From IMG/VR virus record IMGVR_UViG_2563366915_000001: a stretch of 34,673 bases of DNA; one strand, 5' to 3'. Shown in pieces: positions 5,170 through 20,136 of this stretch (position 1 is the first letter of the stretch; each line of letters starts with the position of its first letter). The notes beneath the pieces are model-generated. The model was given only the letters and a program-made list of their open reading frames with translations, searched no databases and had not been told where the DNA came from. Both the position numbers and the translations under genes were made by a program. This stretch comes from a virus. Lineage: Duplodnaviria; Heunggongvirae; Uroviricota; Caudoviricetes.

Positions 5170-6102
5170 CTATTCGATTTTTTTAACCATGTAGTTACGT
5201 CGTGATGTTCCTAATCTTTCATTGTGAATCTCAGAAACGCTTACTACGAGCGATATTCGTTCACCAACTTTATATTTACTTTGAATTTCTCCTAACATAT
5301 CAATCGGATAAGAAGCCTTTATTTTTCCAAGCTCGCTTGCAATCTCCAATTTCCCGTACATGGATAAAATAGCAAGTTCGCCTGATATATGCTCATCCGG
5401 TAGCTGAATGACCTTCGTTAAAGCTAAGCGAGCATTCAGTTTTTTTATATCTTCTGAAGAAATTGACACTTGTCTGGTACCATCACTTAAAGGTCCAATC
5501 CAAGTAAGATCAAAGTTAAGACTATATTTTTCGCACTCATTTATGATGTTTTTTAGGTTAGCTGTTGATTGCGAACCAATTTCGGCAATTTTAGCCGTGA
5601 ATGTTTCTTCATCAATGGATGAGAGTAGTGCAAAAATCTCCTTAACAGCATGACTGGATACTGTTTCGATGAGCTCGCAAGAACCAGTAGAAAAAGTAAC
5701 ACCTAACTTCGTCGAACCTGGACGCAAGTCTGCCAATCTCATGTCTAATGATTTTTTAACATCAATCGGCACACGACTAGAATCTTTCCCAGATCCAAGT
5801 CGGTAAACTGCTTTCTGTACAAGGGATGCGAGATTACCTGAAATTACAGATAGAATATCTAACGGAATAGACCCGAAATCGACCAAAACACCTTTTAATC
5901 TCAACTCCATGAAATCACGTAAAGGATGTTGGTTATCGATTGCACGTTGTCTCTCTCGGAGATCGCTCAGATGGGAGTCAAGTGATCTAAATATAATGTC
6001 ATCAGCAAATGATCTCCCCTTATTTTGAGCAAGCAGATCCACATCGCGTTGAATGAACGCAATTCGCTCCTTGAGGGAGTTGAATGTTTTTTCTTCGCTC
6101 AT
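5170..6102 (-). CDS. Uncharacterised 310-aa protein, second gene of the cassette in the rexAB slot
   Basis: Long ORF in AT-rich DNA; its ATG overlaps the stop of the upstream ORF (ATGA at 6099-6102); no motif I can recognise (no Walker A, no clear HEPN Rx4-6H, no TM segment). Confidence 0.7.
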   Translation of the reverse strand: MSEEKTFNSLKERIAFIQRDVDLLAQNKGRSFADDIIFRSLDSHLSDLRERQRAIDNQHPLRDFMELRLKGVLVDFGSIPLDILSVISGNLASLVQKAVYRLGSGKDSSRVPIDVKKSLDMRLADLRPGSTKLGVTFSTGSCELIETVSSHAVKEIFALLSSIDEETFTAKIAEIGSQSTANLKNIINECEKYSLNFDLTWIGPLSDGTRQVSISSEDIKKLNARLALTKVIQLPDEHISGELAILSMYGKLEIASELGKIKASYPIDMLGEIQSKYKVGERISLVVSVSEIHNERLGTSRRNYMVKKIE

Positions 6103-6572
6103 AACATTACCCTCACGAGGCCTTTAGGATTCTCCTTCCGATCAAAACCAAACCACCCTCTCCAGTAACTTCGCCTTTCACTATAATCGATTTCTGGATG
6201 ATTTTCAGGCAGCAAAAGAACGTCAATGCTGTAGTTTTCTTTAATAAAATCTCTATTTAACAATGAGCTGACCAATGGCATCAGCGTGTTTGGCAAAGAG
6301 TTTAGGGCCAAATAATCGACGACCACGAGTATATCTATGTCATCAGGTTCAGGTTTCTCTGTAGTGAATGAACCATCGATCCACACTTCAGAGAAACATA
6401 GACACTGCTGATTAACAAGTTTAAATTGCTCAATAAGCTGTATAAAATTACAGTATAGCATACTTCTTCTAACGGATTTTGGGAAGGTGTCGACACAAAG
6501 AGACTTGATGCCATCACTATCCATATCATGAAATCCTGCTGTAAGAAGAGGTGGGAAGCTAGGCTTTTCCAT
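6099..6572 (-). CDS. Putative minimal nucleotidyltransferase (pol-beta superfamily, MNT/SMODS-like), 157 aa
   Basis: Translation contains WIDGSFTTEKPEPDDIDILVVVD, i.e. hG[GS]-x9-DxD, the signature of pol-beta-fold NTases, with a further acidic stretch (DVLLLPEN) downstream; first gene after cI on the same strand. Confidence 0.65.
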   Translation of the reverse strand: MEKPSFPPLLTAGFHDMDSDGIKSLCVDTFPKSVRRSMLYCNFIQLIEQFKLVNQQCLCFSEVWIDGSFTTEKPEPDDIDILVVVDYLALNSLPNTLMPLVSSLLNRDFIKENYSIDVLLLPENHPEIDYSERRSYWRGWFGFDRKENPKGLVRVML

Positions 6573-6653: not shown

Positions 6654-7343
6654 TTAACCATGCTTCCTGTACGTCTGCGGCATGCTCCCAATAACCTTAC
6701 CGAAGATGAACACCCGGTTCATCTCGTCTTTCTCGATCGGGTCCCACGGTGAGTAGCTTTTGTTATCAGAGATGACCAGCAGCTTATCCTTCATCATTTG
6801 CAGGCGCTTTACATGGGCTGTGTCGTCGTACAGAAACGCATAGATACCATCACCGTCGAAAGATTTAACTGTGATATCAACGAACAGCAGATCACCTGGT
6901 TCGATCGTTCCTGACATGCTGTCACCACGCACGTTAATGATGCGGATATTTTCCGCCTTCCTACCATCGAACATGTGACGAGCATCGTCAAACGAGTACT
7001 CAACCGAGCGTAGAACTTCTACAAACTCACGGTTGATGACTCCCGGCCCAGCACTGACTTCTATATCAAGAACGTCAATCTTGAAGTATTTGGAATGGCT
7101 GACAGTTGATTGTATTGGTTGCACTGTACTGTCTGACATATTTCCAACGCCAGAAGATAACCATTCTGCGCGCACACCCAAAGCGTTCGCGATCTCCACG
7201 ATTTTAGTTGTTTGATTAGCTTTCCCTGTTTCGATTTTCTGAATAGCAGCCTGGCTAACCCCGACCAAATCCCCAAGCGCCTTTTGTGTAAGGCCTCGCG
7301 CTAATCTGGCTTCTTTAAGTCTTTCTGAGAGTGTTGTTTTCAT
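6654..7343 (-). CDS. cI: CI-type prophage repressor, N-terminal HTH plus C-terminal S24/LexA-like peptidase; start taken at MKTTLSERL
   Basis: HTH region LTQKALGDLVGVSQAAIQKIETG; C-terminal autocleavage-domain pattern (RGDSMSGTIEPGDLLFVD...VKR); divergent from cro across an operator region. Confidence 0.9.
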   Translation of the reverse strand: MKTTLSERLKEARLARGLTQKALGDLVGVSQAAIQKIETGKANQTTKIVEIANALGVRAEWLSSGVGNMSDSTVQPIQSTVSHSKYFKIDVLDIEVSAGPGVINREFVEVLRSVEYSFDDARHMFDGRKAENIRIINVRGDSMSGTIEPGDLLFVDITVKSFDGDGIYAFLYDDTAHVKRLQMMKDKLLVISDNKSYSPWDPIEKDEMNRVFIFGKVIGSMPQTYRKHG

Positions 7344-7447
7344 AGTCCAAATGTACAACCAAGGTTTTATTCCATCAAACGAAAATGGTTGTTGACTAAA
7401 AACAACCATAGTTTTAATCTTGATTCAAATTAACCACGGAGGTTGTT
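7344..7447. promoter_or_regulatory. OR/PR/PRM region between cI and cro
   Basis: PR candidate TTGACT (7392-7397), 17-nt spacer, TAATCT (7415-7420); inverted repeat atggttgtt-N7-aacaaccat embraces the -35; same half sites as the PL region. Confidence 0.55.
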
Positions 7448-7747: not shown

Positions 7748-8287
7748 ATGCAACCACTTCCATACCAACAGACTAGCGGATTTAGCCCGACTGCGGTGAT
7801 AAATCGTTCTCAAACAAAACAGGTGCCAGGCCACGAAAAAATCCGTGATGCCGTCCGCGCCTGGTCGGCTGTAGATAATCAGGATGTCGTTGCCACACTC
7901 ATTGTGAATGAGTATCGGGAGCAGGGCGGCGGCACCATCGATTTCCCTGATGATGTCAGCCGTGCACGCCAGAAGCTGTTCCGCTTCCTCGATAACAAAT
8001 TCGATTCTGAAAAATACCGAAATAACGTGCGTGAACTGACCCCGGCAATTCTGGCGGTACTACCGCTGGAATATCGCGGTTACCTGGTTGAGCAGGATAG
8101 CTTCATGGCTAGGTTGGCTGAAATGGAAAAGGAACTCAGTGAGGCAAAACAGGCTGTCATTCTCAACGCACCACGCCACCAGAAACTGAAGGAAATTAGT
8201 GAAGGTATTGTATCGATGTTTCGTGTGGACCCAGATCTGGCTGGTCCATTGATGGCGATGGTTACTACCATGCTGGGGGCGATATGA
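7748..8287 (+). CDS. YdaT-like protein occupying the cII position (179 aa)
   Basis: Motifs NEYREQGGG and LTPAILAVLPLEYR resemble what I recall of Rac YdaT; no lambda-cII-like sequence. Confidence 0.5.
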   Translation: MQPLPYQQTSGFSPTAVINRSQTKQVPGHEKIRDAVRAWSAVDNQDVVATLIVNEYREQGGGTIDFPDDVSRARQKLFRFLDNKFDSEKYRNNVRELTPAILAVLPLEYRGYLVEQDSFMARLAEMEKELSEAKQAVILNAPRHQKLKEISEGIVSMFRVDPDLAGPLMAMVTTMLGAI

Positions 8288-8373
8288 CAGGTTCAGAAAT
8301 GGCGAAAGCCGGTCTGCTGGAACAGAACCGACTTTCAGGTGCAAATCGTAACACACTCATTGCGGGAGGAATT

Positions 8374-9303
8374 ATGGCAAACACTGCTGAGATATTCAAT
8401 TTTCCAGTGCCGGATGCGGCACAAAAGGAGCCGCGCGTGGCAGATCTCGATGATGGTTATACGCGCATTGCAAATGAGTTGCTGGAAGCTGTGATGCTGG
8501 CCGGATTAACACAGCACCAGCTTCTGGTCTTCCTGGCTGTCATGCGCAAAACATATGGCTTTAATAAAAAACTGGATTGGGTGAGCAACGAGCAACTTTC
8601 CGAATTGACCGGGATATTGCCGCACAAGTGTTCTGCTGCAAAAAGCGTTCTGGTAAAGCGTGGGATTCTTATTCAGAGCGGGCGGAATATCGGCATTAAT
8701 AATGTGGTCAGTGAATGGTCAACATTACCCGAATCAGGTAAGAAAAATAAAGTTTACCTGAAAGAGGTAAATTTACCTGAATCAGGTAAGAAAAGTTTAC
8801 CCAAATCAGGTAAAGGCGTTTACCCGAATCAGGTAAACACAAAAGACAAACTAACAAAAGACAATATAAAACCTTTTTCGTCCGAGAATTCTGGCGAATC
8901 CTCTGACCAGCCAGAAAACGATCTTCCTGTGGTGAAACCGGATGCTGCAATTCAGAGCGGCAGCAAGTGGGGGACAGCAGAAGACCTGACCGCCGCAGAG
9001 TGGATGTTTGACATGGTGAAGACTATCGCACCATCAGCCAGAAAACCGAATTTTGCTGGGTGGGCTAACGATATCCGCCTGATGCGTGAACGTGACGGAC
9101 GTAACCACCGCGACATGTGCGTGCTGTTCCGCTGGGCCTGCCAGGACAACTTCTGGTCCGGTAACGTGCTGAGTCCGGCCAAACTCCGCGACAAGTGGAC
9201 CCAGCTCGAAATCAACCGGAACAAGCAACAGGCTGGCGTGACAGTCGGCAAACCAAAACTCGACCTGACAAACACTGACTGGATTTACGGGGTGGATCTA
9301 TGA
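8374..9303 (+). CDS. O: Replication initiator O; start taken at MANTAEIFNF with GGGAGGA RBS
   Basis: N-terminal O-type domain (ADLDDGY...LLVFLAVMRKTYGFNKK), lambda-like C-terminus ending ...DWIYGVDL, iteron array inside the gene; 4-bp overlap with P. Confidence 0.9.
   Translation: MANTAEIFNFPVPDAAQKEPRVADLDDGYTRIANELLEAVMLAGLTQHQLLVFLAVMRKTYGFNKKLDWVSNEQLSELTGILPHKCSAAKSVLVKRGILIQSGRNIGINNVVSEWSTLPESGKKNKVYLKEVNLPESGKKSLPKSGKGVYPNQVNTKDKLTKDNIKPFSSENSGESSDQPENDLPVVKPDAAIQSGSKWGTAEDLTAAEWMFDMVKTIAPSARKPNFAGWANDIRLMRERDGRNHRDMCVLFRWACQDNFWSGNVLSPAKLRDKWTQLEINRNKQQAGVTVGKPKLDLTNTDWIYGVDL
8725..8880. repeat. Replication origin: five 17-19-bp iterons (consensus tttacccgaatcaggtaa) followed by an A-rich segment, inside O
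   Basis: Direct repeats at 8725-8741, 8753-8770, 8772-8789, 8796-8813 and 8819-8836, then acacaaaagacaaactaacaaaagacaatataaaacc; same layout as lambda ori. Confidence 0.8.
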
Positions 9304-10001
9304 AAAACATCGCCGCACAGATGGTTAACTTTGACCGTGAGCAGATGCGTCGGATCGCCAACAACATGCCGGAACAGTATGACGAAAAGCCACAGGTACA
9401 GCAGGTAGCGCAGATCATCAACGGTGTGTTCAGCCAGTTACTGGCAACTTTCCCGGCGAGCCTGGCTAATCGTGAGCAGAACGAACTGAACGAAATCCGC
9501 CGCCAGTGGGTTCTGGCTTTCCGGGAAAACGGGATCACCACGATGGAACAGGTTAACGCAGGAATGCGCGTAGCCCGTCGGCAGAATCGACCATTCCTGC
9601 CATCCCCCGGACAGTTTGTAGCCTGGTGCCGGGAAGAAGCATCCGTTATTGCCGGACTACCAAACACCAGCGAGCTGGTTGATATGGTTTACGAGTATTG
9701 CCGGAAGCGTGGCCTGTATCCGGATGCAGAGTCTTATCCGTGGAAATCAAACGCGCACTACTGGCTGGTTACCAACCTGTATCAGAACATGCGGGCCAAT
9801 GCGCTTACTGATGCGGAATTACGGCGCAAGGCTGCCGATGAACTGACTTGTATGACCGCGCGAATTAACCGTGGTGAGGCGATACCTGAACCAGTAAAAC
9901 AACTTCCTGTCATGGGCGGTAGACCTCTAAATCGTGCACAGGCTCTGGCGAAGATCGCAGAAATCAAAGCGAAGTTCGGACTGAAAGGAGCAACTGTATG
10001 A
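9300..10001 (+). CDS. P: Replication protein P (DnaB helicase loader), 233 aa
   Basis: Translation MKNIAAQMVNFDREQMRRIANNMPEQYDEKPQVQQVAQIINGVFSQLLATFPASLAN... is near-identical to lambda P. Confidence 0.95.
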   Translation: MKNIAAQMVNFDREQMRRIANNMPEQYDEKPQVQQVAQIINGVFSQLLATFPASLANREQNELNEIRRQWVLAFRENGITTMEQVNAGMRVARRQNRPFLPSPGQFVAWCREEASVIAGLPNTSELVDMVYEYCRKRGLYPDAESYPWKSNAHYWLVTNLYQNMRANALTDAELRRKAADELTCMTARINRGEAIPEPVKQLPVMGGRPLNRAQALAKIAEIKAKFGLKGATV

Positions 10002-10300
10002 CGGGCAAAGAGGCAATTATTCATTACCTGGGGACGCATAAGAGCTTCTGTGCGCAGGACGTTGCTGCGGTAACAGGCGCAACAGTAACCAGTATAAATC
10101 AGGCTGCGGCTAAAATGGCACGGGCAGGAATCTTGGTCGTTGATGGTAAGGTCTGGCGAACGGTGTATTACCGGTTCGCTACCAGGGAAGAACGGGAAGG
10201 AAAGGTGAGCACGAATCTGATTTTCAAGGAGTGTCGCCAGAGTGCCGCGATGAAACGAGTGTTGGCAGTGTATGGAGATATGAACTTAAACTTGCTGTGA
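9998..10300 (+). CDS. ren: Ren (Rex-exclusion negation protein), 100 aa
   Basis: Translation MTGKEAIIHYLGTHKSFCAQDVAAVTGATVTSINQAAAKMARAG... matches lambda Ren. Confidence 0.9.
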   Translation: MTGKEAIIHYLGTHKSFCAQDVAAVTGATVTSINQAAAKMARAGILVVDGKVWRTVYYRFATREEREGKVSTNLIFKECRQSAAMKRVLAVYGDMNLNLL

Positions 10301-10548
10301 CGGTTTTCATCGGTAACACACCATGTAATCTAGCAGTCAGCTTAGAAATAGGAGCGGCAGTTAAAGATTTTTCAGTTAGTAGAAAATTACTGTTATTGCA
10401 GGGATCTAATCACCGGAGAGTCGTTCCATTTGTCTTATGATTACCTGAAGTCCGTTAGTTCGTTGGTAATCACCGTTTTTGTTAGAGAAGTAAGCATCGC
10501 TGACAAAATATTCTCAACGATGCCTGCTTTATTGCTACTACAAATTAA

Positions 10549-12051
10549 TTAAATTGCATCTGCAAACTCTGGGGTTTTTCGCTCAGGTATAATTGATGAG
10601 TTGCTGTTGTCACTTTTTTTATTTTCATGATTACGAATAGCCAATGACTCATTAAAGTCTTTTGCGACTGCTGTCTCAATAAATTCAATTTCTGAATCAG
10701 AGTGTTTTTTAACAGCTTCTTTGATCTCATCCAGAGTAACATAGAAAAACTCTTTTCTACGATTTACAAGATTGACTCTCTTTTTATCGAAGACATCATG
10801 TAGTTTTTTTTCTAATGATGGAGCGTCCTCCGAATAAATCATGGCATGTACATCAAAAATAAAAGGAACAGATGCATCACCGAGCTCATTTACACGGTCT
10901 TGCGGATCAAGACGTCGTGTCATGCCTATTTTATAAACATTCTCCCCAAAAGAACCTATGTTCGAAATAATATAAACATGACCTTGTTTGGTTTGTTGTG
11001 CCATGGATAATGCTCTTTGATGCTTTGATTCAGCCTGCGACAAACTCTGTTCTAGTTCGGCAATGCGATTTTCGAGGCGCTGCTTCATGTCACCAGTAAC
11101 TTTTTCCATTTCCTTTCTTGCAGCTTCAATTGCTTTTTTATAACGGCGCTCTTCTGCCTCTGCGTCTTGCATGGCCTTTTCTATTTCTCGTTGTGCACGC
11201 TCCTCCTCTCTCATTTGTGCCCTTATTTCTGCCTGTTCTTCTTTTTCTTTCTGTTTTTGCTCACGATATTCATGGGTAAGCCACAATTCCTCAAGTTTTT
11301 TATTGAGGTATTTAGTGTTTATATATATGTGATTTTGCTCGTTTAGTTTATTTATGGCCTCAAATGCCTTTGTGATGCGTTCTTCCATTTTAGTGATGTT
11401 TTTCCACGTGCAATTGCTAATTGCAGCATCACATTCATTATTAAATGCTCTAGTAGTTAGCCTGATATTTCTGTCTGTCATTTTTTTACCCTCTGCTCGA
11501 GAGCCTTCAACAGTCCATTGGGTTGTACAATATACTGCGCCAGAGTGGGTTTTATCCCGCAGCATTAATTTCTGTTCATCCCTGATGGATTTTATTTTGT
11601 TTTTAAATTGCTCTGAATCTTCAAAATTAAAATGAGGTTCGTAAAATCCTAGTTCGGCTAGCTCAACATCTTCTGAATAAATAGAAATTTGCCTTACTAG
11701 TTTATCATATATTTCTTTCTTCTCTTTATAAGTTCTTCTTAGCTCTTGGATTTGTTTATTGATACCATCCATTTTTTCAATGGTGTTTGTTAGTTCATTA
11801 TTGGCATTTTCTTTTACTTTTAGGGATTCTTCTTTTATTATGGAGCATTCTTGCTCTGTTTTCTCAATAAGCTTCTTACATTCTTCTTCTACATTAAAAT
11901 AATCTGCAAAGCGAGATTTGTATTCTTCATTTTTTTGATTGCTATCACTTAATTCTAATTGTATTTTTTTGATGCGTTTGATTGCAGCTATATAAAGAAC
12001 AAGAACAACCAATAAAAATATGATTGCAAGTAATAGAGGAGTTTGAGTCAT
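10549..12051 (-). CDS. Membrane-anchored coiled-coil protein with DUF4041-like region and C-terminal T5orf172 (GIY-YIG-like) domain, 500 aa
   Basis: N-terminal hydrophobic helix (LLLAIIFLLVVLVLYIAAI); long E/K/R/Q-rich heptad region; C-terminal GHVYIISNIGSFGENVYKIGMTRRLDPQDRVNELGDASVPFIFDVHAMIYSEDAPSLEKKLHDVFDKKRVNL...KEFFYVTLDEIKEAV fits T5orf172; antisense to the early-right operon; AT-rich. Confidence 0.8.
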   Translation of the reverse strand: MTQTPLLLAIIFLLVVLVLYIAAIKRIKKIQLELSDSNQKNEEYKSRFADYFNVEEECKKLIEKTEQECSIIKEESLKVKENANNELTNTIEKMDGINKQIQELRRTYKEKKEIYDKLVRQISIYSEDVELAELGFYEPHFNFEDSEQFKNKIKSIRDEQKLMLRDKTHSGAVYCTTQWTVEGSRAEGKKMTDRNIRLTTRAFNNECDAAISNCTWKNITKMEERITKAFEAINKLNEQNHIYINTKYLNKKLEELWLTHEYREQKQKEKEEQAEIRAQMREEERAQREIEKAMQDAEAEERRYKKAIEAARKEMEKVTGDMKQRLENRIAELEQSLSQAESKHQRALSMAQQTKQGHVYIISNIGSFGENVYKIGMTRRLDPQDRVNELGDASVPFIFDVHAMIYSEDAPSLEKKLHDVFDKKRVNLVNRRKEFFYVTLDEIKEAVKKHSDSEIEFIETAVAKDFNESLAIRNHENKKSDNSNSSIIPERKTPEFADAI

Positions 12052-12360
12052 TCGTGCTATTCCTTACGGACAATTTAAGACGTTTTGTATTAAATCCTGT
12101 TCAATGTGTATGCGGGTGATTGCTACCGCTTACAATCTTCATAATTATCAGTTAGATAGACTCGCTAGTAAATAATTTCATTTTTTGCAATATTCTTATT
12201 GAATATTTCAATTTATGAAATGAACTCTTTATCCTTTCAAGGTGAAAGGTTTCTTCTTCGGAAATATTTGCTCTCGTGTGACGTATAAAGACCTTTGATT
12301 TTCAAAAATCAGTAGGGAATAATATAGTTACTGTCGGCCTGAACACCCGGTGGTGGGGTT

Positions 12361-12450
12361 GCGCTAAACGGGGACGTTTATGCGCACACACAATCCAAAC
12401 TCTCATCTCCATTCACAGATGCAGAAATGCACCTACGATTTTTTACATTC
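12361..12450 (+). repeat. Direct repeat copy 1 (~90 bp, 7 mismatches versus copy 2 at 14295-14384)
   Basis: gcgctaaacggggacgtttatgcgcaca... aligned by eye with the ninB-proximal copy; carries a short ORF start (ATG 12380) after a GGGGA motif. Confidence 0.75.
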
Positions 12451-12863
12451 GGTGTTTTACTTCGACAGCCAGAATTGGGAGTCTCTATTCGTCTGGCGGC
12501 TAAAGGTGATATGGAAATCGTTATGTTTTGGCCTGAGGTAGTTGTAACTGTTGTAGCAGCTATGGATGTGATCATCATGGTGTCCATTTACTGGGGTTGA
12601 CGACATGATTTATCCGGCGCTATATTCTGTGCGTTGCCGCAAAATCGGCACACGGGATTGGCGTCCCGGGATACTACTCAACGCATACCGCGTTAAGCGG
12701 TTTTTTTGTGCGCTAAGCACGGCTATGCCCAAATTATGGTGGGCTGTGTGAGGGCTTCTTCGGAAGCGCCGGGTTTGAGTAGCCGGTTACGCCAACCTTA
12801 CACAGTTCACCACCAGTCGATTGGCGTCGTTGGTGGTGATGGTTAACCTGATGAGGTGATACT

Positions 12864-13472
12864 ATGACTACTCAATTAGCATTCCACAAAACGACGTTTA
12901 CCCCGATTTGCCACAATAACAGAATTTGGCTTACTGCCACTGAAGTTGGTTTAGCACTGGAATATGCGGACGATAAAGCAGTTCAGCGCATTTACTCTCG
13001 GCACTCAGATGAATTCACAGATATGATGACAAGGGTGGTCAAAGTGACCACCCCTCGTGGAATGCAGGAGTCTCGAGTATTTAGCCTTCGCGGAGCCCAT
13101 TTGATCGCCATGTTTGCTCGTACTCCTGTGGCCAAAGAATTCCGCCGCTGGGTTCTGGATATTCTCGATCGAGAAGTTCAACAATCCCCAATCACAAAAC
13201 AATTCACTGATAACGAACTTTGCACACTCGCCTGGTTATGGCGAGCAAGTGATACGATGTTAACCGCCTGCCAGAACGTTACGCCCCTTCTTCAGGTCGC
13301 AGAGCATCGCGAAGCAGGTAGATTCACTTCAATCGAACAAGAATATCCTCGGATACTCAACAGGGCGCGAGAAATCCTTGCCAGAGAAACGGCGCATGTA
13401 AAATTCCAACCGTGGCAGGATGATAAGTGGAGTCGTGTGTTACCATATTTCCGTCAGAATCTGTTGCAATAA
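12864..13472 (+). CDS. Bro-N domain antirepressor-like protein (202 aa)
   Basis: N-terminal region RIWLTATEVGLALEYADDKAVQRIYSRHSDEF...RGMQESRVFSLRGAHLIAMFARTPVAKEFRRWVLDIL fits the Bro-N/AntA pattern. Confidence 0.7.
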   Translation: MTTQLAFHKTTFTPICHNNRIWLTATEVGLALEYADDKAVQRIYSRHSDEFTDMMTRVVKVTTPRGMQESRVFSLRGAHLIAMFARTPVAKEFRRWVLDILDREVQQSPITKQFTDNELCTLAWLWRASDTMLTACQNVTPLLQVAEHREAGRFTSIEQEYPRILNRAREILARETAHVKFQPWQDDKWSRVLPYFRQNLLQ

Positions 13473-13707: not shown

Positions 13708-14217
13708 ATGATGTGGAACTTTGACAGTGCCGACTTAAGTGCAATAGCAGCAGGCATTTCTGCGTTTGGCACATTAGCCGCAGCGGGGTCGGCGCTTGCA
13801 AGTTGGTGCACGTCAAAAAAAGCGCTGCAGCTACAAAATAGAGTTTACCTTTATGAGTCTTTAAAGGCTTGCGCTGAGAGAGCCAATTCATCAGCTAAAG
13901 ATAAGCGCGGATCTGAATGGAGCGTTAATGATGCAGCGGATATCATCAGGTGCCTAGTACGGGCGATGGAGCTCATCAAGCAGGATAGCCAGCAGAAAGA
14001 AGGTAATCAGGCATTAATGTTGAAACAGTACTTTGTTAATCTGCTAATAATGGAACTGTACGAGGAAGTTCATAACGGTGATGCGGCTGATTCTGTTTTT
14101 AAAAGTACGGAACCTACACAAGTACTTGATAACTTATGGAGCAAATGGCAGGAGGCTATAGCTTTTTTTGATATTTGGAATTACCCAGTTGCGACTGAGG
14201 AAGACTTGGCAGACTAA
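13708..14217 (+). CDS. Uncharacterised 169-aa protein with hydrophobic N-terminal segment
   Basis: ORF downstream of the terminator in AT-rich DNA; N-terminal AIAAGISAFGTLAAAGSALASW suggests a TM or signal segment; no recognisable catalytic motif. Confidence 0.5.
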   Translation: MMWNFDSADLSAIAAGISAFGTLAAAGSALASWCTSKKALQLQNRVYLYESLKACAERANSSAKDKRGSEWSVNDAADIIRCLVRAMELIKQDSQQKEGNQALMLKQYFVNLLIMELYEEVHNGDAADSVFKSTEPTQVLDNLWSKWQEAIAFFDIWNYPVATEEDLAD

Positions 14218-14294
14218 TTTTCAGCACATTTGATTTCCAATAATCAACCAGCCATAATCATGCCATTGGAGCTTGAACAACTCCGGTGACTTCT

Positions 14295-14384
14295 GCGCTA
14301 AACGGGGACGTTTATGCGCACATACAATCCAAACTCTCTTCTCCCTTCACAGATGCAGAGATGCACCTGCGATTTTTTGCATCC
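14295..14384 (+). repeat. Direct repeat copy 2, immediately upstream of ninB
   Basis: See copy 1; about 92 percent identical over 90 bp. Confidence 0.75.
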
Positions 14385-14415
14385 AGCGTTTGACCTCTGC
14401 GGAGGTGAAGCGTGA
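14314..14415 (+). CDS. Small ORF (33 aa) inside repeat copy 2, YlcH-like by position; overlaps the ninB start
   Basis: ATG preceded by GGGGA; encodes [33 protein letters not shown]; DLP12 has a 33-aa ylcH in this position (recollection). Differences from copy 1 are mostly non-synonymous, so coding status is doubtful. Confidence 0.3.
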
Positions 14416-16474: not shown

Positions 16475-17557
16475 TTAGAACTGGTAAACCAGACCTACAG
16501 CAACGATGTCATCAGTATCAATACCAGCTGTTTTGGTAAACTTACTATCGTCAATTAAGTTGATTTTGTAATCAACAAAAGTGGACATGTTTTTATTAAA
16601 GTAGTAAGTAGCACCGACATCGACATACTTGACTAAGTCTCGGTCACCATGAACACCAAGGTCTTTACCTTTTGACTGAAGGTAAGCAACAGATGGGCGC
16701 AGACCGAAGTCAAACTGATATTGTGCTACTGCTTCAAAGTTTTGTGCTTTGTTTGCAATATGGTTATTACCAAAAACGGTCATATTCTGAGTTTCAGAAT
16801 ATGTGGTAGCCAGATAGATATTGTTCGCATCATATTTCAGGCCTGCAGCCCATACTTCCGCATTTTTGCCGGAGGCATTGAATTTGCTCTTACCATAGGC
16901 GACCTGACCGTCAGTGCGATCTGATTTAGCATAGGTTGCACCCACGCCGAATCCTTCATACTCATAAGTAGTGGAGAAACCGAAACCATCACCATTGGCT
17001 TCAGTTACGTCAGTGCGGTCATTTTTACCCTGATACTGAGCAGCAAAGTTCAGGCCATCGACCAGACCAAAGAAGTCGTTGTTACGATAAGTTGCAACAC
17101 CAGTAGTGCGACCAGTCATGAACACATCTGTTTGGGTCCAGGTATCACCACCGAATTCTGGCAGGACGTCAGTCCACGCACCGATGTCGTATGCTACACC
17201 GTAGTTACGGCCGTAATCGATTGAGCCGTAATCACCAAATTTCAGGCCTGCAAATGCAAGACGGGTTTTGTCTTTGGAAGAACCTTGAGATTCAGCGCGG
17301 TTGCCTTTGAATTCATATTCCCACTGACCGAAACCAGTCAGTTGATCGTTGATTTGGGTTTCACCTTTGAAGCCAAGACGGGCATAAGTAGTATCACCAT
17401 CATCTGCATCATTAGAGGAGAAGTAGTGCTTAGCATTAACTTTCCCGTACAGATCCAGCTTGTTACTGTCTTTATTATAAATTTCAGCTGCCTGAGCAGA
17501 CATCGCCATCAGTACTGATGCAGCTACAGCAGAAATTGCCACTGTTAATTTTTTCAT
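16475..17557 (-). CDS. nmpC: Outer-membrane general porin of the OmpC/OmpF family, NmpC/Lc type, intact 360 aa with signal peptide
   Basis: Signal peptide [23 protein letters not shown], porin body and C-terminal ...AVGLVYQF beta-barrel signature; location between Q and the lysis genes as in DLP12/PA-2. Confidence 0.9.
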
Positions 17558-18130: not shown

Positions 18131-18346
18131 ATGAAATCCATGGATAAGTTAACAACGGGTGTCGCCTATGGCACCTCAGCAGGTAGTGCCGGGTACTGGT
18201 TTTTACAGCTGCTCGATAAAGTCACGCCCTCACAGTGGGCAGCAATAGGTGTGCTGGGTAGCCTGGTATTTGGCCTGCTGACGTACCTGACAAACCTTTA
18301 TTTCAAGATTAAAGAAGATAAGCGCAAGGCTGCGAGAGGTGAATAA
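18131..18346 (+). CDS. Holin (71 aa, phage-21 S / EssD-like)
   Basis: Small protein with hydrophobic segments and charged C-terminus ([13 protein letters not shown]); its stop overlaps the endolysin start. Confidence 0.8.
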
Positions 18347-18680
18347 TGCCTCCATCATTACGAAAAGCTGTTGCTGCTGCTATTGGTGGCGGGGCTATTG
18401 CTATAGCATCTGTGTTAATCACTGGCCCAAGTGGTAACGATGGTCTGGAAGGTGTGAGACATAATCCTTACAAAGACATAGTTGGTGTATGGACTGTATG
18501 TTACGGGCATACAGGAAAAGACATCATTCCCGGTAAAACGTATACCGAAGCAGAGTGCAAAGCCCTCCTGAATAAAGACCTTGCCACTGTCGCCAGACAA
18601 ATTAACCGGTACATCAAAGTCGATATACCGGAAACAACGCGCGGCGCTCTTTACTCGTTCGTCTACAACGTGGGTGCTGG
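18346..18680 (+). pseudogene. SAR-endolysin (T4-lysozyme-like) truncated by IS5 after about 111 codons
   Basis: N-terminal SAR domain [18 protein letters not shown] and the E/D/T catalytic region (GLEGV...[15 protein letters not shown]); the reading frame runs into the IS5 inverted repeat at 18681 and the native C-terminus is absent. Confidence 0.8.
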
Positions 18681-19875
<1,195 letters not shown>

Positions 19876-19902
19876 CTAGTCTGCACGATTATCTAAATTG
19901 CT

Positions 19903-20136
19903 TCAATCTGGTCTGACCTGCTTTCTGAGCAATTCAGTAATGTCACTCTTTTCTTTGTTTGCTTCAGGCGAAACTCTTTTTTCTGAGCACAGTCTTCGGC
20001 GGCAGGCTTCAATGACCCAGGCTGAGAAATTCCCGGACCCTTTTTGATCAAGAGCAATGTTAATTTGTTCAATCATTTGGTTAGGAAAGCGGATGTTGCG
20101 GGTTGTTGTTCTGCGGGTTCTGTTCTTCGTTGACAT
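19903..20136 (-). CDS. Small basic protein (77 aa), YlcI/DUF3950-like by recollection, just upstream of cos
   Basis: Translation MSTKNRTRRTTTRNIRFPNQMIEQINIALDQKGSGNFSAWVIEACRRRL...; position as DLP12 ylcI before nohD/Nu1. Confidence 0.45.
   Translation of the reverse strand: MSTKNRTRRTTTRNIRFPNQMIEQINIALDQKGSGNFSAWVIEACRRRLCSEKRVSPEANKEKSDITELLRKQVRPD

Follow-up and report, generated by a model that had tools for sequence, protein, structure and literature searches.

An intact copy of the anti-phage nuclease gene SNIPE (PD-lambda-1) between ren and ninB of a lambda-like prophage

The gene and its surroundings

The window analysed here is a single stretch of 34,673 nucleotides of viral DNA. 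Between the replication genes and the nin region it contains an open reading frame (ORF) on the minus strand, 10549-12051, which begins with ATG and encodes 500 amino acids plus a stop. At the local GC content of 0.351, with a stop-codon probability of 0.078 per codon, 500 stop-free codons are expected by chance with a probability of about 3e-18. The gene, referred to below as SNIPE for the reasons given in a later section, lies antisense to O, P, the ren-like ORF, the NinB-like gene, RusA and Q. The features of this part of the window are:

8284-9303, opposite strand to the SNIPE gene: O
9300-10001, opposite strand to the SNIPE gene: P
9998-10300, opposite strand to the SNIPE gene: ren-like ORF
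10281-12293, no strand assigned: AT-rich cargo cassette, which takes the place of the 73-bp ren-ninB spacer of lambda
10549-12051, minus strand: SNIPE / PD-lambda-1 coding sequence (CDS), assigned from the ORF, the PADLOC match, identity with phage PhiR26_1 and nine residues named in the literature

The stop codon of ren and that of SNIPE are 248 bp apart, and on the other side the SNIPE start is separated by 328 bp from the next annotated small ORF and by 812 bp from the next solid gene, at 12864. A preliminary description, made from the sequence alone, had reported a 500-residue minus-strand frame opposite the early-right operon, in AT-rich DNA with flanks of about 250 and 300 bp; all of this was borne out, the coordinates exactly. 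It had also stated that lambda carries no gene at this place, which agrees with the lambda map, where ren runs up to 40570 and NinB begins at 40644.

The base composition sets the region apart from its neighbours. Along the SNIPE gene the GC content ranges from 0.29 to 0.38, against about 0.50-0.55 in O, P and ren, and its GC3 is 0.28. The cassette as a whole, about 2 kb long, has a GC content of 0.352, compared with 0.512 elsewhere in the window. Homology to the ren genes of lambda, PhiR30_1 and Escherichia coli 2018-11-3CC stops at 10273-10280, within the last ren codons, and the conserved segment of the ninB leader restarts at about 12294; the cargo is therefore placed at about 10281-12293. 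The unit common to the window and strain 2018-11-3CC extends from 10487 to 12448.

Distribution of the cassette

With a cut-off of at least 95% nucleotide identity, the SNIPE gene was found in 131 of 5,426 complete E. coli genomes, in the chromosome every time, and the exact protein is present on at least 1,000 contigs. A ren-like sequence whose homology ends at the same point occurs in 2,578 E. coli genomes, of which 102 run on into the cassette, so that one common junction is seen in 102 of the 131 copies. All contexts that were inspected are lambdoid prophages with the gene in the same slot as in the window, and in PhiR30_1 this slot is occupied by an acyltransferase and a lipoprotein. The earlier view of the gene as a horizontally acquired, single-gene cargo (moron) is supported.

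Some of the other copies have features of their own. In E. coli 2018-11-3CC (NZ_AP021895.1), SNIPE is adjoined by a gene for a 515-residue HD-domain protein (extracted locus L005, 5094-6641, minus strand), located on the same strand as SNIPE and in the same ren-nin slot. This protein had no match in PADLOC, and it could be a co-cargo or a defence candidate. E. coli LP-26-E1-261 (locus L008, 4001-6702) contains a decayed SNIPE copy split by an IS5 element, while in E. coli P276M (locus L004, 7001-8017) the protein is truncated to 338 residues, within a DLP12-type remnant by tRNA-Arg and intD.

Domain architecture of the protein

The protein is composed of an N-terminal membrane segment, long helical regions, a DUF4041 domain and a C-terminal nuclease-like domain, which are encoded as follows:

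11980-12042, minus strand: N-terminal single-pass transmembrane (TM) helix, approximately residues 4-24, LLLAIIFLLVVLVLYIAAI (Kyte-Doolittle, AF2 model, homologues)
11296-11460, minus strand: DUF4041, residues 198-252 (Pfam PF13250, E = 1.2e-19, 2-56 of 56 model positions)
10705-10983, minus strand: T5orf172/MUG113 (GIY-YIG-type) nuclease domain, residues 357-449 (Pfam)
10810-10812, minus strand: codon of the catalytic glutamate E414, which is the same in all 64 homologues and was mutated to alanine in published work

The only segment above 1.6 on the Kyte-Doolittle scale is the N-terminal one, with a 19-residue maximum of 3.37 at residues 6-24. It is helical in the AF2 model, and a hydrophobic segment is found at this end in 63 of the 64 homologues. 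The AF2 model consists of two long helices, residues 4-123 and 246-353, and a C-terminal alpha/beta domain, and its DUF4041 region has a pLDDT above 90. A hydrophobic periodicity near 3.5 is strong in residues 28-123, where none of 2,000 shuffles reaches the observed value, and in residues 321-353 (shuffle fraction 0.0045), and weak in the very charged helix 246-317 (shuffle fraction 0.04). The single N-terminal TM helix and the long charged heptad region of the preliminary description are consequently found again, the latter with this weaker middle part.

The C-terminal block matches T5orf172 (PF10544, residues 357-449, E = 6.9e-17) and MUG113 (PF13455, residues 373-449, E = 7e-19), and these two matches, like that to DUF4041, exceed the Pfam gathering scores, in agreement with the pairing of DUF4041 and T5orf172 proposed earlier. 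T5orf172 and MUG113 are both members of the GIY-YIG clan of Pfam. Conservation was evaluated in a set of 64 homologues of 50-57% identity that came from Vibrio, Shewanella, Photobacterium and many Enterobacterales. Nine positions are invariant (G357, Y360, K374, G376, R379, R380, E414, N427 and N430), and position 373 is either Y or F. The GIY-YIG motifs, which comprise GIY-like and YIG-like strands some 10-15 residues from each other with conserved Arg, Glu and Asn after them, can be recognised as G357-H-V-Y360, Y/F373-K-I-G376, R379/R380, E414 and N427/N430, all invariant or nearly so, which is the pattern expected for a GIY-YIG active site.

A model of the domain alone, with a pLDDT of 66, has the order beta-beta-alpha-beta-alpha. 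Foldseek with the full-length model returned Slx1 at E = 1.8, among results dominated by long-helix noise. Searches of PDB chains by sequence and by profile gave no relevant match, and NCBIfam yielded no convincing family (best E = 6e-4, well short of the cut-off); in PHROGs the protein matches only phrog_1847, annotated as of unknown function.

Identity with SNIPE

The protein matches the PADLOC models of the defence system PD-Lambda-1 over nearly their whole length (PDLC03976, E = 1.9e-198, 1-485 of 491 model positions; PDLC03977, E = 7e-195). In a megablast search of 10300-12860 against phage genomes, Escherichia phage PhiR26_1 (PV340555.1) was the only match over the full length, with 99.9% identity. 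Over this interval there are only two nucleotide differences, at 12243 and 12566, both outside the CDS, and the PhiR26_1 protein XSB42081.1, annotated by its depositors as "PD-lambda-1", is 100% identical. RefSeq labels identical copies as "SNIPE associated domain-containing protein".

PD-lambda-1 came from E. coli ECOR26, from which it was cloned in the screen of Vassallo 2022, and was validated as a defence system (PMC9519451). In that source the gene is located on contig QOXL01000020 at 49060-50562 (1,503 bp, protein RCP76574.1), the cloned fragment spans 48998-50844, and the domains found by HHpred are DUF4041 at 197-252, T5orf172 at 357-448 and MUG113 at 373-449 (PMC9519451). The window gene matches in its 1,503-bp length and in its domain coordinates. 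More recently, PD-lambda-1 was renamed SNIPE, with 500 residues, in a report that refers by position to E414, N250, L253, W257, E264, K305, I308, T319 and E223 (Saxton et al., Nature 2026; PMC13190303), and the window protein has all nine residues at the same positions.

By every test available here, the window protein would be the experimentally tested protein of ECOR26. This conclusion is drawn from converging facts, namely how the PhiR26_1 gene is annotated, the common length, the agreement in domain coordinates and the nine residues named by position. The two also have in common the ren-to-nin slot of a lambdoid prophage, and no difference at the protein level is detectable. The carrier prophage does differ from PhiR26_1, to which it is 97-98% identical, by another cargo block beside cI and by an IS5 insertion with a deletion in the lysis region. 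The window gene is therefore a correct rediscovery of a known anti-phage protein and not a new system. The preliminary description knew of no characterised function for this architecture; in fact, the protein was validated as PD-lambda-1 in 2022 (PMC9519451) and its mechanism was described under the name SNIPE in 2026 (PMC13190303).

Expression signals

Three candidate signals for expression of the gene accompany it:

12144-12172, minus strand: candidate sigma-70 promoter, TTTACT, 17-nt spacer, GATAAT (consensus scan, 9 of 12 matches)
12060-12065, minus strand: Shine-Dalgarno-like AAGGAA, 9-14 nt before the ATG, read from the sequence
10492-10525, minus strand: stable hairpin, possible transcript end, 24-57 nt past the stop codon

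The candidate promoter, which precedes the ATG by about 90 nt, is purely a pattern match. The hairpin has an RNA folding energy of -22.9 kcal/mol (z = -3.6), with none of 200 shuffles as stable; it is an energy match, and its tail is not a clean run of U. A terminator scan detected no minus-strand terminator for the SNIPE gene, nor a surplus of terminator-like sites compared with shuffles (3 against 2.8). All three elements fall inside the 282-bp and 62-bp flanks of the published native-promoter clone, assuming that of the two flanks the longer lies upstream. SNIPE is described as expressed constitutively from its own promoter (PMC13190303). Here, its transcription would start from a promoter within 12052-12293 and run antisense to the pR operon, and the transcript may end near the hairpin at 10492-10525.

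On the plus strand, just past the antisense SNIPE gene, there is a terminator-like hairpin at 12233-12249, CCTTTCAAGGTGAAAGG followed by TTTCTTCTTC, in the position where lambda has tR2-type terminators. The difference from PhiR26_1 at 12243 (T/C) falls inside it. This hairpin may be a chance occurrence, terminator-like sites not being enriched over shuffles.

It might be argued that in this strain the gene, as cargo of a defective prophage, is silent or decaying and without a present function. The prophage has suffered an IS5-type insertion with the loss of about 2.3 kb of its lysis region, copies of SNIPE in other genomes are IS5-split or truncated, and the gene runs antisense to the early-right operon. 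In the window, however, the ORF is intact and encodes a protein identical to the version annotated as PD-lambda-1. The upstream 282 bp, enough for expression in the published clone, differ from PhiR26_1 by one base, 12243 T/C, which lies outside the predicted promoter hexamers. The occurrence of the exact protein on at least 1,000 contigs, moreover, indicates that the gene is being maintained. A dead gene is thus highly improbable, and this reading was rejected.

Published mechanism

According to the SNIPE report, the protein is a GIY-YIG nuclease anchored in the inner membrane that cleaves siphovirus DNA at genome injection (PMC13190303). PhoA-LacZalpha fusions placed its N-terminus in the periplasm and the remainder in the cytoplasm (PMC13190303). 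Defence is abolished by the E414A substitution or by deletion of DUF4041, and E414A also abolishes DNA cleavage and the toxicity of a form without the TM helix (PMC13190303). This toxic TM-less form attaches to the nucleoid by way of DUF4041 and, unless E414 is mutated, produces double-strand breaks; the membrane anchor keeps the nuclease off the chromosome (PMC13190303).

DUF4041 is assigned both DNA binding and contact with the phage tape measure protein, the latter on the basis of escape and gain-of-function mutations and of crosslinking (PMC13190303). SNIPE associates with the mannose permease ManYZ, the route of lambda DNA entry; it is labelled by TurboID-ManZ in infected or uninfected cells, and defence against lambda-type phages is largely ManYZ-dependent (PMC13190303). 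In cells with SNIPE, injected lambda genomes appear about 30-fold less, and 32P-labelled injected phage DNA is converted into a smear, while adsorption, plasmid transformation and the induction of resident prophages are unaffected (PMC13190303). The phage DNA is cut during injection, and therefore the cell survives (PMC13190303), which makes this a direct defence and not abortive infection.

The preliminary description had left both options standing, superinfection exclusion by a tethered nuclease or abortive infection. The first is essentially the published mechanism. As for the second, a tethered nuclease freed or activated on infection would kill the host before progeny are made. Abortive action is common among single-gene nuclease defences. 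The TM-less protein is indeed highly toxic and cleaves the chromosome (PMC13190303). Against this, infected SNIPE cells survived and grew in time-lapse imaging and high-MOI growth curves, unlike those with the abortive control PD-lambda-3; the injected labelled DNA was degraded; and the rare genomes that escaped replicated normally (PMC13190303). Abortive infection is contradicted by these published data on the identical protein, was rejected, and appears scarcely credible. Destruction of the entering genome by SNIPE remains the preferred reading.

Homing endonucleases include proteins with GIY-YIG and T5orf172 domains. A selfish gene of this kind, spreading its own cassette among lambdoid genomes with defence as an incidental effect, would fit the sharp cassette boundaries at the conserved ren point and the ninB leader and the differing neighbours of the cassette, but it is extremely improbable and was rejected, given that a membrane anchor, present in 63 of the 64 homologues, is ill suited to an enzyme needing access to DNA, that no sequence-specific DNA-binding module was detected in SNIPE with Pfam, that one junction in 102 of the 131 E. 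coli copies fits inheritance together with ordinary mosaic recombination in conserved flanking sequence, and that resident and plasmid DNA are not cut by SNIPE (PMC13190303).

Proposed role in the lysogen

Very probably, then, the window gene is the published SNIPE, and in this lysogen it would act as a repressor-independent device for the exclusion of lambda-type and other siphoviruses.

[quoted passage not shown] From this similarity, virions of the carrier itself should be ManYZ-dependent and of the SNIPE-susceptible class. The SNIPE-carrying prophage itself thus has the entry apparatus that SNIPE targets. Given the 97% identity to gpH, SNIPE would be predicted to degrade DNA injected by close kin, the carrier's own progeny among them, independently of cI immunity. 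Tentatively, with the balance tilting slightly to the other side, it can be suggested that the native copy may mainly be a weapon among competing lambda-type prophages and that the ren-ninB interval may be a general cargo swap site, occupied by SNIPE alone in the window, by SNIPE with an HD-domain gene in one strain, and by an acyltransferase with a lipoprotein in PhiR30_1. The PhiR phages are said to originate from Brenes & Laub 2025 (Cell Host Microbe). Neither the role in kin competition nor the swap-site idea was found stated in the literature searched; that work may cover both.

By its mechanism, SNIPE tells self from non-self DNA by the place of entry, and not by sequence or modification. 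This principle was established between 2022 and 2026 on the same protein, so that the window adds no new principle. It is a clean example in the native context, an intact SNIPE in a lambda-like prophage with a tape measure protein of the susceptible type. What it adds are the cassette boundaries, the candidate expression signals, the frequency in E. coli and the neighbouring cargo, namely a PDC-M63 candidate and an isrK/C4 antirepressor module. Reading of the sequence alone had recovered the right architecture and nearly the right mechanism.

Comparison with other systems

The lambdoid superinfection-exclusion morons of the HK97 gp15 type are likewise prophage-encoded proteins of the inner membrane that stop siphovirus genomes at entry, and both they and SNIPE depend on the tape measure protein and on a sugar-PTS permease. 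SNIPE has been likened to them (PMC13190303). It goes beyond merely blocking entry, however, in that its nuclease destroys the DNA, and no sequence relationship between the two was found in Pfam, PHROG and PADLOC searches.

Zorya and Kiwa resemble SNIPE in being membrane-localised and in acting at or near genome injection (PMC13190303). Each of them consists of several genes and is believed to sense perturbation of the envelope, whereas SNIPE is a single polypeptide placed by its contacts with ManYZ and the tape measure protein. PADLOC gave no match of SNIPE to either of them. PDC-S57 and other T5orf172-only candidates have the C-terminal T5orf172 in common with SNIPE (PADLOC E = 1.7e-18, residues 354-468); the match to PDC-S57 covers only the nuclease domain, and the TM helix and DUF4041 of SNIPE lie outside it.

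Other features of the carrier prophage

Beyond the candidate SNIPE promoter, the apparently non-coding stretch contains two matches to RNA families at the Rfam gathering level, the Hfq-binding RNA isrK (12635-12707, plus strand, 58.7 bits) and the C4 antisense RNA (12732-12817, plus strand, 74.8 bits). They are located directly 5' of a Bro-N/P22_AR_C gene (12864-13472, plus strand), which is Rha/antirepressor-like. A strong promoter-like site at 12597-12626 (TTGACG, 18-nt spacer, TATATT) fits one end of the isrK-like RNA, and a terminator-like hairpin at 12687-12701 fits the other. Judging from these matches, the whole resembles an antirepressor module of the immI type, under RNA control.

A direct repeat of 104 nt (12360-12463 and 14294-14397), with copies that are 89% identical and 1,934 nt apart, flanks the antirepressor-like gene together with a phrog_1779 gene (13708-14217). 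Other lambdoid phages have one copy just 5' of ninB, in the region of "orf33" of phage 82 and its ribosome-binding site. The duplication suggests that the antirepressor module was inserted by recombination at the conserved leader.

Directly downstream of the cI-like gene (6654-7409, minus strand), in the position of rexAB in lambda, there is a two-gene cargo (5170-6102 and 6099-6572, both minus strand) that encodes a DUF6932 protein and a 310-residue protein without a Pfam family. The pair matches A and B of the PADLOC candidate PDC-M63 (E = 7e-43 and 4e-42), and PhiR26_1 has a small lipoprotein gene at this position instead.

An IS5-type element at 18680-19974, with a transposase ORF (DDE_Tnp_1, DUF772) at 18827-19843 on the minus strand, replaces about 2.3 kb of PhiR26_1, comprising the 3' part of the gene for lysozyme R, Rz, bor, ybcV and ybcW. 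What remains of the lysozyme ORF (18346-18789) matches no more than positions 3-83 of a Pfam model that has 125 positions. Owing to this insertion and deletion and the shortened lysozyme R, the carrier prophage is probably lysis-defective, in which case the part of the role of SNIPE that benefits the phage may no longer apply. In addition, an OmpC/OmpD-type porin moron (16475-17557, minus strand) lies antisense downstream of Q, and a YdaT_toxin-domain protein (7748-8287, plus strand) is encoded in the position of cII.
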